From positions 1 to 5,862 of the forward strand of contig NZ_SODD01000071.1 of assembly GCF_004365815.1 (NCBI RefSeq): a stretch of 5,862 nt of DNA. The letters run 5' to 3'. The first letter of the stretch is position 1; each line of letters opens with the position of its first letter. The position numbers and the translations under genes are program-made. The notes below the pieces were generated by a model, which was not told where the DNA came from, ran no database searches, and worked only from the letters and a program-made list of their open reading frames with translations. The DNA is from Breznakia blatticola (GTDB taxonomy: Bacteria; Bacillota_I; Bacilli_A; Erysipelotrichales; Erysipelotrichaceae). Of the stretch, positions 1 through 5,862 are shown piece after piece.

Positions 1-115
1 GCAACCTTATTTCCAGAACACTTCTTATCTTAGATTAGAAGAACAATACAATCAAGTTGGAAAAGCCAACTGATTACACTACATATTATACGAGGGAGAA
101 GAAATATGTAATGAG

Positions 116-1972
116 ATGAATATAAGTGGAAGAACTTTGCGTGGAGACTTCAATGAATTCAAGCCGCTATTTTTTGAGAATGGAATTGAAATCATTTCAA
201 AGCAAGCAAAGGGTTATGCATTGCGCATATTTAATGAAGATGCATACCATAATTTTATATATGAATTGATGAAGGAAGAAGAGCATTCACAAAAACTATT
301 ACCTGTTTATCCAGAAGATCGAATCAATTATCTAATTCGCTTGTTTTTGACACAGAATACATATCTAAAGATGGAAGATATTGCAGATATGTTATTTATT
401 TCAAGAGCAACTCTTACCAATGATCTTCGTCAAGTTCGAGAAAGATTATCGTACTTTCATTTACAACTTGTTTCTAGACCGGCATATGGATTAAAAATTG
501 AAGGGGATGAAATCCACATGCGTTCATGTATTGCGCAATACTTTTATCATACGGATACAATTGATGCGCGTTTACAACACTCAGCTGAAGATGAAAAGAT
601 TGATAAAATAAAAACTATTTTATTAGAAGCATTATATACATATGAACTTCATTTGACAGATGTTGGATTTCAAAATCTAGTCATCCATATTTCAATTGCA
701 ATTACTAGAAATTCAAATGAGCAAAAATCCTTCGTTTCAGATGAATGGAATCTGATAGAAACCTATGAATACTCGGTCGCTAAAGCAATTGTGATGCAGT
801 TGGAGCAAACATTTCAGATAACTTTAAATCCGATTGAGTGTGAATATATCACAATCCATCTACTTGGTAAAAAACGTGCAGTTGATGAGAATCATCACGA
901 GATTGATGAAGAAACACAAAACCTCTTAACTGCCATTATGCGTGAGATCAATATGCAATATGGGTATGATTTTTCTAATGACTTTGAACTCTATACATTA
1001 CTAGCATTACATTTTTTACCGATGCTAAATCGTTTGAAGTTTGGTTTACGGATTCAAAATCCGTTACTCCATGAAATTAAAAATAATAATTTAGTTGCTT
1101 TTGAAATGGGAGTATGCTGCGCAAATGTGATTGAAAAAGAAATAAATGTAGAAGTAGATGAAAACGAAATTGGATATTTAGCATTACATTTAGCATTAGC
1201 GATTGAACGCTACAAGAAACAAAGTATTAGTAAGAAGAATATTGTAATTGTTTGTGCTAGTGGTGCAGGAAGTTCGCAAATCTTACTTTATAAAATGAAA
1301 CAACGATTCCAAGAATATTTAAATGAAATTAAAGTATGTGAATTGTATGAACTAGAACAATTAGATGTAACACCATATGATTTTATTATGAGTACGGTCC
1401 CTATTCCCTTTGCATGTAAAATCCCGGTTATTCGGGTGAAGTATTTTCTAAATGATCAAGATGCAAGTAGTGTTGAAAAGATGATAAAAAGTGAACAAAA
1501 CGATGATGTAGTTGCAACATTTTTTTCAGATGCATATATTTTTAACACGCTAAAAGGAAAAACGAGAGAACAAATACTTAATGAAATGATCGATAAACTT
1601 TCGTTAGTTGCAAATGTACCAGATACGCTATTACAAGAAGTTTTAAAAAGAGAAAATTATGCAGCCACTGAATTTGGTAATGAAATTGCATTACCACATG
1701 CCATGCATCCAGTTTGTGAAACATCATTTGTGAGCATTGGAATTTTAGATAAACCAATCATTTGGTTTGAAAAACCAGTACGTTATATATTCTTGTTGTG
1801 TGTAAGCAAACAAAAAGAAGAACATATTGGAATGCTACAAGAAATGTTAAGTGAATTATTAATGCGTAAAGATTTGATGGATCAATTTGCCCTACATCCA
1901 ACAACTGCAAATTTACATACAATCTTGCAGGATTTGAACATTCAAACAGATGATGAAGATATCTTCAAATAA
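116..1972 (+). CDS. licR: PTS-controlled PRD-domain transcriptional regulator (LicR/MtlR/ManR class: wHTH, Mga-like HTH, PRD1, PRD2, EIIB(Gat)-like, EIIA(Mtl/Fru)-like). It appears N-terminally truncated.
   Basis: 618-aa ORF ending in TAA. Recognition-helix motif ISGRTLRGD sits at residues 3-11. A second HTH is present (LKMEDIADMLFISRATLTNDLRQVRERL, about residues 84-111). PRD histidine motifs: NLVIHISIAITR (H191, nt 686), YITIHLLGKK (H248, nt 857), LLALHFLPMLNR (H299, nt 1010), YLALHLALAIERY (H358, nt 1187). EIIB-like motif IVIVCASGAGSSQ (C380, nt 1253). EIIA-like motif EIALPHAMHP (H528, nt 1697). The symbol is an architecture-level label only. The only ATG, GTG or TTG start after the upstream in-frame stop is 116, and it has poor SD spacing (GGGAG at 94-98, 17 nt upstream). 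Confidence 0.85.
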   Translation: MNISGRTLRGDFNEFKPLFFENGIEIISKQAKGYALRIFNEDAYHNFIYELMKEEEHSQKLLPVYPEDRINYLIRLFLTQNTYLKMEDIADMLFISRATLTNDLRQVRERLSYFHLQLVSRPAYGLKIEGDEIHMRSCIAQYFYHTDTIDARLQHSAEDEKIDKIKTILLEALYTYELHLTDVGFQNLVIHISIAITRNSNEQKSFVSDEWNLIETYEYSVAKAIVMQLEQTFQITLNPIECEYITIHLLGKKRAVDENHHEIDEETQNLLTAIMREINMQYGYDFSNDFELYTLLALHFLPMLNRLKFGLRIQNPLLHEIKNNNLVAFEMGVCCANVIEKEINVEVDENEIGYLALHLALAIERYKKQSISKKNIVIVCASGAGSSQILLYKMKQRFQEYLNEIKVCELYELEQLDVTPYDFIMSTVPIPFACKIPVIRVKYFLNDQDASSVEKMIKSEQNDDVVATFFSDAYIFNTLKGKTREQILNEMIDKLSLVANVPDTLLQEVLKRENYAATEFGNEIALPHAMHPVCETSFVSIGILDKPIIWFEKPVRYIFLLCVSKQKEEHIGMLQEMLSELLMRKDLMDQFALHPTTANLHTILQDLNIQTDDEDIFK

Positions 1973-1973
1973 G

Positions 1974-2000
1974 AAATGCCACTTTTAAACTGGCATTTTT
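1974..2000 (+). terminator. Candidate weak intrinsic terminator of the regulator gene (it may also act as a palindromic operator)
   Basis: AAATGCCA (1974-1981) is the exact reverse complement of TGGCATTT (1991-1998), with a 9-nt loop CTTTTAAAC. The 3' arm runs into TTTTT (1996-2000). It starts 2 nt after the TAA at 1970-1972. The stem is AT-rich with only 3 G:C pairs, so it is probably leaky. Confidence 0.4.
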
Positions 2001-2005
2001 ATCAG

Positions 2006-2033
2006 TCCACATTTTAATTGTATTTTCTATAAT
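2006..2033 (+). promoter_or_regulatory. Candidate sigma-A type promoter for the PTS operon (TCCACA, 16-nt spacer, TATAAT)
   Basis: Perfect -10 hexamer TATAAT at 2028-2033. Best -35 is TCCACA at 2006-2011 (4/6 match to TTGACA) with a 16-nt spacer. A weak -35 fits an activator-dependent promoter. The predicted TSS is near 2040, which leaves a very short leader carrying AGGAGG (2041-2046). This is a sequence-motif call only. Confidence 0.3.
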
Positions 2034-2052
2034 GAAAGTAAGGAGGGTTCAC

Positions 2053-5369
<3,317 letters not shown>

Positions 5370-5370
<1 letters not shown>

Positions 5371-5684
5371 TGGAAGGATTGGAACTTACTTGTTTTCAAA
5401 TTATTTCTAATGTAGGTGGTGCGCGCAGTTGCTTTATCGAAGCAATTCAAAGTGCAAAACAGGGTGACTATGAAAAGGCAGCAACACAAATTCAAGAAGG
5501 TGAAGCCTTCTTTACAGAAGGACACCATGCCCACGCAACACTCATACAAAAAGAAGCAAATGGTGAACTTGATTCAATCAGTTTATTACTTTTACATGCA
5601 GAAGACCAACTAATGAGTGCAGAGGCATTTAAGATTCTTGCAAAAGAATTCATTGATGTATATCAAAAAATAGAAAATAAATAG
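5370..5684 (+). CDS. PTS lactose/cellobiose-family EIIA component
   Basis: 104-aa ORF from GTG 5370 (TAGTG overlap with the EIIB stop; GAGGT at 5356-5360). N-terminus MEGLELTCFQIISNVGGARS and C-terminal LLLLHAEDQLMSAEAF match the three-helix EIIA-Lac/Chb family. The presumed phospho-histidine is H76, nt 5595-5597. Confidence 0.92.
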
Positions 5685-5724
5685 AGCAAAAGGGGCTGTG
5701 ACACTTAGTACAGCTTCAAATCAT

Positions 5725-5766
5725 AAAAATAACGCCTAAACTCGTAAGAGAATAGGCGTTATTTTT
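5725..5766 (+). terminator. Rho-independent (bidirectional-type) terminator of the PTS operon
   Basis: AAAAATAACGCCT (5725-5737) is the exact reverse complement of AGGCGTTATTTTT (5754-5766). Core stem is AACGCCTA/TAGGCGTT (5731-5738 / 5753-5760). An inner CTC-GTAA-GAG helix (5741-5750) is capped by a GNRA-type tetraloop. A T5 tract lies downstream (5762-5766) and an A5 tract upstream (5725-5729). Confidence 0.85.
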
Positions 5767-5768
5767 GG

Positions 5769-5862
5769 GTGTGCCAGGCATGGTGCATATCTAGTTGGTG
5801 AAAGTCCAACCGCAGGTGTTACCGCTAAGCGTAGTGAACCACAAGCCGAAGTCGGTGACGAC
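5769..5862 (+). mobile_element. 5' end (first 94 nt, start of domain I) of a class C (IIC) group II intron, truncated by the window edge
   Basis: Starts GUGUG (5769-5773), matching the group II 5' consensus GUGYG. GUGUGCCAGGCAUGGUGCAUAUCUAGUUGGUGAAAGUCCAAC closely parallels, from memory, the 5' end of the Oceanobacillus iheyensis IIC intron (GUGUGCCCGGCAUGGGUGCAGUCUAUAGGGUGAGAGUCCC). G+C jumps to about 54% (51/94 by my count) from about one-third in the operon. It lies 2 nt after a terminator T-tract, in the same orientation as the operon, which is the classic IIC target. Confidence 0.75.

Follow-up and report, generated by a model that had tools for sequence, protein, structure and literature searches.

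The right end of a Breznakia blatticola contig is very probably the 5' end of a group IIC intron inserted behind a terminator-type hairpin

Breznakia blatticola is an Erysipelotrichaceae species of the cockroach gut, and one entire contig of its draft genome, 5,862 nt long and hereafter called the window, carries on its plus strand an operon of a BglG/LicR-type regulator, PTS IIBC, a GH1 6-phospho-beta-glucosidase, PTS IIB and PTS IIA. A terminator-like hairpin follows the last gene, and the contig ends shortly beyond it. What is this final stretch, and why does the contig stop within it? The original prediction proposed a class C group II intron that had used the operon's terminator as its homing site. 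The present analysis indicates that nucleotides 5769-5862 are, with high confidence, the 5' end of a IIC group II intron lying in sense orientation 2 nt past the T-run, the contig break being probably due to a repeat. The features at this end of the operon are as follows.

5370..5684, plus strand: PTS lactose/cellobiose IIA component, last gene of the operon, 104 aa (ORF list; Pfam PTS_IIA on the orthologue; named PTS cellobiose-specific IIA)
5692..5717, plus strand: first hairpin 3' of the IIA stop codon, nine pairs, several of them G-U, without a T-run (fold; alignment with sister-strain contigs L001-L006)
5725..5766, plus strand: intrinsic-terminator-like hairpin with T5 at 5762-5766 (sequence; fold)
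5765..5768, plus strand: TTGG, the final 4 nt of the 5' exon and predicted IBS1 (from EBS1/IBS1 covariation in 45 relatives)
5769..5862, plus strand: first 94 nt of group IIC intron domain I, with GUGUG at 5769-5773 and the contig end at intron nt 94 (covariance model, identity to full-length introns, partial RF02003)

The direction of transcription into the terminator is set by the IIA gene, and 5725-5766 is the first terminator-like hairpin 3' of this gene in the window strain. Its arms (5725-5738 with 5753-5766) enclose an inner tip CTC-GTAA-GAG capped by GTAA, and T5 is followed by GG at 5767-5768 and then by GTGTG. The coordinates first proposed for the hairpin, T5, GG, GTGTG and the helices beyond were all correct when checked against the sequence, and the arrangement of hairpin, T5, GG and intron on the strand of the operon agrees with the proposed sense insertion just 3' of a terminator stem-loop. 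RNA folding of 5686-5768 (83 nt) gave -33 kcal/mol (z = -8.1), with none of 200 shuffles as good; the 50 nt upstream of the intron alone fold at -21.8 kcal/mol, with seven T in the last 12 nt. A simple consensus terminator scanner did not flag the 5725-5766 hairpin because of its two internal A/A mismatches and the scanner's loop rule. The abrupt rise in base composition noticed at the outset is also real, G+C going from 0.31-0.33 (5600-5749) to 0.50 (5750-5849), that is from about 0.32 to 0.50 at the junction.

Some observations concern the operon itself. Four window proteins that were looked up, three PTS components among them, correspond to TDW08412 and TDW08414-TDW08416. The start codon of the IIA gene is GTG. 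Start and stop codons overlap at the GH1/IIB and IIB/IIA junctions (5068-5075 and 5368-5372), which suggests that both pairs may be translationally coupled.

The 5' boundary of the intron, exactly 2 nt past the T-run, is GUGUG and agrees with the GUGYG consensus; from 5769 onward the sequence reads GTGTGCCAGGCATGG.... Many full-length group II introns from Enterococcus, Tetragenococcus, Clostridia and metagenomes share 84-88% identity with the 94 nt over their own first 94 nt. The best relative reaches 88% over 94 nt, and the closest 5' ends over this length include L172, L158, L034 (Candidatus Enterococcus moelleringii), L041 (Enterococcus sp.) and one of Tetragenococcus muriaticus. When genomes, one for each species, were scanned with a degenerate pattern, at least 117 loci were found, belonging to Bacillaceae, Enterococcus, Tetragenococcus and Clostridia; a second pattern gave 37 metagenomic loci. 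When the tail was compared with phage records by blastn, it matched the exact 5' end of a full-length intron (E = 5e-8); in this phage-labelled contig a hairpin precedes the intron, which goes on to RF02001, a 434-aa ORF and domain V. The tail also matches by blastn a copy on the Lysinibacillus plasmid pFN9D, annotated there as ltrA.

The covariance-model check suggested with the original prediction gave a divided outcome: no Rfam family matched the whole window at gathering thresholds, but a model built from relatives did match the tail. This model (R1), made from 23 relatives with the window left out, aligned from nt 1 to exactly 5769-5862, on the plus strand only, with 96.3 bits (E ~2e-23; next-best window match 3.6 bits), a score that is partly built in because the relatives were fetched with patterns matching parts of the window. 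Positions outside the fetch patterns and the independent blastn matches also support homology. At relaxed thresholds RF02003 (group-II-D1D4-4) gave a 3'-truncated match at 5792-5862 (18.7 bits against a gathering score of 49, E = 0.022), the remaining matches being terminator-driven noise. RF02001, which matches all full-length relatives examined, starts only near intron nt 82, which leaves room in the window for some 13 nt of the model, and the silence of Rfam here is therefore uninformative. Standard Rfam scans thus miss the first ~80 nt of IIC introns, and contig ends of this kind stay unannotated.

Searches for closer copies gave no match. Exact 43-50-mer intron patterns returned nothing from the genome, metagenome and viral collections, the hairpin pattern nothing from viral contigs, and neither blastn of 5686-5775 nor megablast of the whole window matched a plasmid record. 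In a search with the RT of the closest relative as query (6,224 homologues), none of the best 120 was named Breznakia, and the six contigs followed up from it carried introns that were only 86-88% identical over the 94 nt or had no 5' end.

To which class does the intron belong? The closest full-length relatives are about 1.9 kb long and match RF02001, RF01998 and RF00029 (domain V). Their RT/maturase of 430 aa contains RVT_1 and GIIM but lacks an HNH/En domain; in the window itself no RT/maturase ORF is visible. Comparison of a relative's 430-aa ORF with the PDB gave the following.

7UIM, group II intron RT/maturase: 2.5e-104
6AR1, GsI-IIC RT: 1e-99
5HHJ / 5HHL, Retron-type reverse transcriptase (PDB name): ~1e-83
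6ME0, Maturase reverse transcriptase (IIB): 6e-44
5G2X, LtrA: 1e-43

The nearest solved structures are therefore those of IIC intron RTs (7UIM, 6AR1). A hairpin with a T-rich tail, counted as stable at an MFE of -8 kcal/mol or lower within 50 nt, precedes 97% of 143 distinct relative insertion sites, against 6% of random positions in the same loci. Class C introns lack En, and insertion at intrinsic terminator motifs is their defining habit (PMC4424553). The class proposed for the element thus holds, on the GUGUG boundary, the 94-nt homology to full-length introns and the closeness of the relatives' RT to IIC RTs. The B. blatticola intron 5' end is a genuine IIC one at a textbook target site, and belongs to a kind that is already well known.

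The nearest described systems are the terminator-targeting IIC introns, among them B.h.I1 of Bacillus halodurans and the introns encoding the GsI-IIC and Eubacterium rectale RTs. The window intron shares with these GUGUG, the conserved 5' sequence of domain I, and a sense position a few nucleotides past a hairpin and T-run. Its relatives share in addition an EBS1-IBS1 pairing of 3-4 bp, a length of about 1.9 kb and an En-less RT of about 430 aa near 7UIM/6AR1 (PMC4424553). Compared with the described introns, and over nt 1-94 only, the window intron is a distinct lineage with a best match of 88% over the 94 nt, a unique U-A pair in the GGUGAAAGUCC stem and an Erysipelotrichaceae host. The IIC introns of Enterococcus and Tetragenococcus (L034, L041, L059, L073, L122) and the metagenomic L158, L134 and L172 are 84-88% identical to it and share its helices and its type of target site, but differ from it at about 12-15 of the 94 positions. 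The 5' end of the crystallised Oceanobacillus iheyensis IIC ribozyme, which we take to run GUGUGCCCGGCAUGG...GGGUGAGAGUCCC, would have the same layout as GUGUGCCAGGCAUGG...UGGUGAAAGUCCA in the window. The O. iheyensis crystal construct lacks an ORF. The IIC-attC introns of integrons belong to the same class and their targeting is likewise structure-directed, but their target is the attC site, whereas the target of the window intron is a hairpin of the terminator type that carries a T-run; the window showed no integron features. A IIC intron lineage is thereby added in Breznakia blatticola (Erysipelotrichaceae), while the current understanding of group II introns is unchanged and practical consequences are modest.

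One of the relatives lies in a setting of some interest. L007 (positions 3502-5360 of the Lysinibacillus capsici plasmid pFN9D) is a full-length related IIC intron on a multiresistance plasmid, where it adjoins cfr and lsa(B); the pFN9D record holds six matching places.

The way in which such an intron could have reached this site follows the established IIC mechanism, which is seen in the relatives rather than in the window. IIC introns target a stem-loop motif, in DNA or RNA, of the intrinsic-terminator kind. The intron RNA with its En-less RT/maturase would recognise the terminator stem-loop in single-stranded DNA, a 4-nt EBS1 loop would pair with the last 3-4 exon nucleotides (TTGG in the window), and reverse-splicing into DNA would be followed by copying from a replication-fork primer. 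By this route the intron may have retrotransposed, in sense orientation, to 2 nt past the T-run of the hairpin after the PTS IIA gene. Placed behind a terminator, it would be transcribed by read-through only and spliced out of the transcript, and would for these reasons do little harm.

Exon recognition can be followed in the relatives. At intron nt ~174-181 they carry a loop GGYUGC-NNNN-CAAAYC, the four variable nucleotides of which are complementary to the exon end: among 45 distinct relative sites the last 3 exon nucleotides pair in 71% and the last 4 in 56%, and no other alignment column exceeds 29%. At least 11 different loop sequences occur, for example TAGA with TCTA, ATTA with TAAT, TCAA with TTGA and TGGT with GCCA, and further intron copies obey the same rule. 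On this covariation the loop is identified as EBS1. The relatives thereby form a clean natural record of how EBS1 and IBS1 co-vary, with 11 types of loop over 45 sites. In the Enterococcus, Tetragenococcus and metagenomic introns named above, the loops (TAGA, TCAA, ATTA and others) match the exon end of the respective copy but do not suit TTGG. For the B. blatticola copy the predicted EBS1 is CCAA at intron nt ~175-178, about 80 nt past the contig end, with TTGG (5765-5768) as its partner. A minority of relative sites is mismatched (e.g., ATTA with TATG), which suggests that some mis-targeting may be tolerated.

Within the 94 nt, four helices were tested by aligning the window to 25 distinct relatives.

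5794..5810 (intron nt 26-42), plus strand: hairpin GUUGG-UGAAAGU-CCAAC, the conserved GGUGAAAGUCC motif, a domain I sub-hairpin (covariation)
5811-5813 with 5829-5831 (nt 43-45 with 61-63), plus strand: helix CGC/GCG enclosing GGU-GUU-ACC (100% paired)
5815-5817 with 5821-5823 (nt 47-49 with 53-55), plus strand: helix GGU/ACC (invariant, hence uninformative)
5851..5862 (nt 83-94), plus strand: GNRA-capped hairpin GUCG-GUGA-CGAC (all 4 pairs covary; 98% of cells paired)

Overall 97.7% of cells were paired and 7 of the 15 pairs changed on both sides, with no shuffled or slid control coming close. Three of the local helices covary, and the window carries compensatory pairs of its own. The pairing of GTTGG (5794-5798) with CCAAC (5806-5810), noted when the sequence was first read, is real by this measure: its second pair (27/41) is GC in 16 sequences, CG in seven and UA in the window alone. 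The CGC/GCG helix shows G-C to A-U compensation in three relatives. A second hairpin put forward at the same time, CCG-AAGT-CGG (5846-5855), did not survive: the letters are present, but the helix is not conserved, its middle pair being unpaired in 20 of 26 sequences, and the GNRA-capped hairpin is the conserved helix there.

The extreme 5' end is less local in its folding. RNAalifold places a hairpin at intron nt 4-17, which is doubtful as in L007 those bases pair with a distal domain I strand, and presumably do so in the O. iheyensis intron too. The long-range pairings of L007 are CAACTATCT with AGATAGTTG and CCAGG with CCTGG; bases 6-24 of the window intron probably pair likewise with a far domain I strand, their partners lying past the contig end. 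Two changes in the window, C16U and A17G, keep the locally predicted 5' helix (3-7/14-18) as G-U pairs, a helix that probably competes with the native long-range pairing.

Why, then, does the contig end at intron nt 94? The position is a common one. For 45 of the 117 loci from the genome scan, the contig or locus breaks off between 41 and 141 nt past the intron start, most often at 92-94 nt, where uniform placement would give 4.6 such cases, and several assemblies carry separate contigs of ~1.85 kb with little beyond the intron. The end at nt 94 is explained if the genome holds more than one copy of the intron and the short-read assembly broke at this repeat; multi-copy status in B. blatticola is what we infer from the break. 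JGI isolate assemblies are made with SPAdes at a largest k of 95, which would fit both the end at nt 94 and the foreign 92 nt at the left end of the window. The intron thus accounts for where this draft contig ends, as a repeat-induced assembly break. A clear collapsed repeat is found in Lysinibacillus telephonicus (L012, L038, L046), where a 1,265-nt contig from the intron interior has coverage 262 and the flanking contigs, starting 120 nt into the intron, coverage 64-72, implying about four copies.

What lies past nt 94 can be judged from 56 relatives with at least 2.3 kb of downstream sequence: 39 have an intact ORF with the YADD motif, some 8 reach full length but have a broken ORF, and another 9 or so are 5' fragments. 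On these proportions the B. blatticola copy would be full length (~1.9 kb, with an RT/maturase of ~430 aa) with good though not complete assurance, and its ORF is probably intact. It is unlikely that the intron is full length with a decayed or absent ORF, and hence immobile or dependent on an RT supplied in trans. About 8 of the 56 relatives do have 1.67-1.98 kb of homology without an intact ORF of at least 300 aa with the YADD motif, as in the Enterococcus intron L041, which has a 371-aa ORF and a sub-threshold domain V match, but the 39 of 56 with an intact ORF weigh on the other side. A dead 5' fragment, left when an inserted IIC intron was truncated or interrupted somewhere past nt 94, is slightly less likely again. 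Such fragments exist, about 9 of the 56 relatives ceasing to match at nt 55-1081 and L011 passing into unrelated DNA after ~105 nt. Against this, of 54 relatives with nt 1-94 intact about 47 are full length, a contig break at nt 94 is typical of a repeat that runs further, as the mode of 92-94 nt in other drafts indicates, and the helices within the 94 nt are intact, with compensatory changes.

Readings in which the junction is not that of an inserted intron fare worse. A mis-assembly that joined an intron start to a terminator not adjacent to it in the genome is suggested by the shortness of the contig, by the bounding of both its sides with sequence absent from the sister strain, and by unshared ends of ~92-94 nt. 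However, the junction has the geometry (hairpin, T5, 2 nt, GUGUG) of 97% of independent sites, which would be unexpected from a random mis-join, and a De Bruijn contig normally extends by about one k-mer into a repeat that is its true neighbour, so this reading is highly improbable. Least credible of all is that the 94 nt are no intron but belong to a gene further downstream, as its 5' UTR, a riboswitch or some other structured RNA, or that GUGUG stands there by chance. That no Rfam family reaches its gathering score is in its favour, but no other family fits either, the only matches being noise and a partial group II D1-D4-4. More than 150 intron copies, which run on into RF02001, an RT ORF and domain V, moreover align with the full 94 nt from nt 1, and with the 96 bits of the covariance model the non-intron reading is refuted as far as homology can refute it. 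The reading as a IIC intron 5' end behind a terminator is retained.

Short 5' fragments of ~47-105 nt followed by unrelated DNA were seen in L011 (14339-14495), L015, L071, L096 and L098. The L011 fragment adjoins another terminator-like hairpin directly on its 3' side (AAAAAAGCGGCTTTTCAAGCCGCTTTTT).

Is the terminator that the intron targeted that of the operon? An exact-protein look-up with IIB returned as its sole contigs those of a sister strain (Logan runs SRR247554xx), which are 96.6% identical to the window, only over 93-5692, and contain no intron. Homology stops where the 5692..5717 hairpin starts: divergence begins at 5693, 8 nt past the IIA stop codon, and from there the sister strain continues with a terminator of its own (AAAGATGTAAT...ATTACATCTTTT), its DUF1846 gene starting 193 nt past the IIA stop (L001 10626-10810). 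The sister strain lacks the 76 nt (5693-5768) that in the window separate the IIA stop codon from the intron, target hairpin included. The claim that the operon's terminator served as target therefore stands in so far as the hairpin is the first terminator-like one after IIA, but is qualified by the different terminator and neighbour of the sister strain from 5693; since that terminator differs, the target hairpin belongs to the window strain and is not a conserved one. The hairpin and the intron could have arrived as a unit, by 'transduction' of the 5' flank or by recombination between intron copies that replaced the native terminator, which is considered very improbable. A recent insertion or chimera carrying terminator and intron was rejected as the main reading of the 5692/5693 breakpoint, given the 3.4% divergence and a left flank (1-92) that differs too. 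With this divergence and both flanks changed, ordinary strain-level rearrangement would be the simplest account of the two flanks.

The left end of the contig has a break of its own. Window 1-92 is unrelated to the sister-strain contigs, and the gene at this end is:

116-1972: BglG/LicR-type regulator

The window regulator lacks the first 28 residues (the start of the HTH) of the 646-aa protein of the sister strain and is otherwise 98% identical. By blastn, window 1-115 had no match in plasmid records. The left end is probably a second repeat-induced contig break, formed by the terminus of a further repeated element, possibly an IS, that entered the regulator gene. The unshared stretches at the two contig tips are of similar length, about 92-94 nt. 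Within the left end an ORF ending ...NQVGKAN* lies in frame with the regulator.
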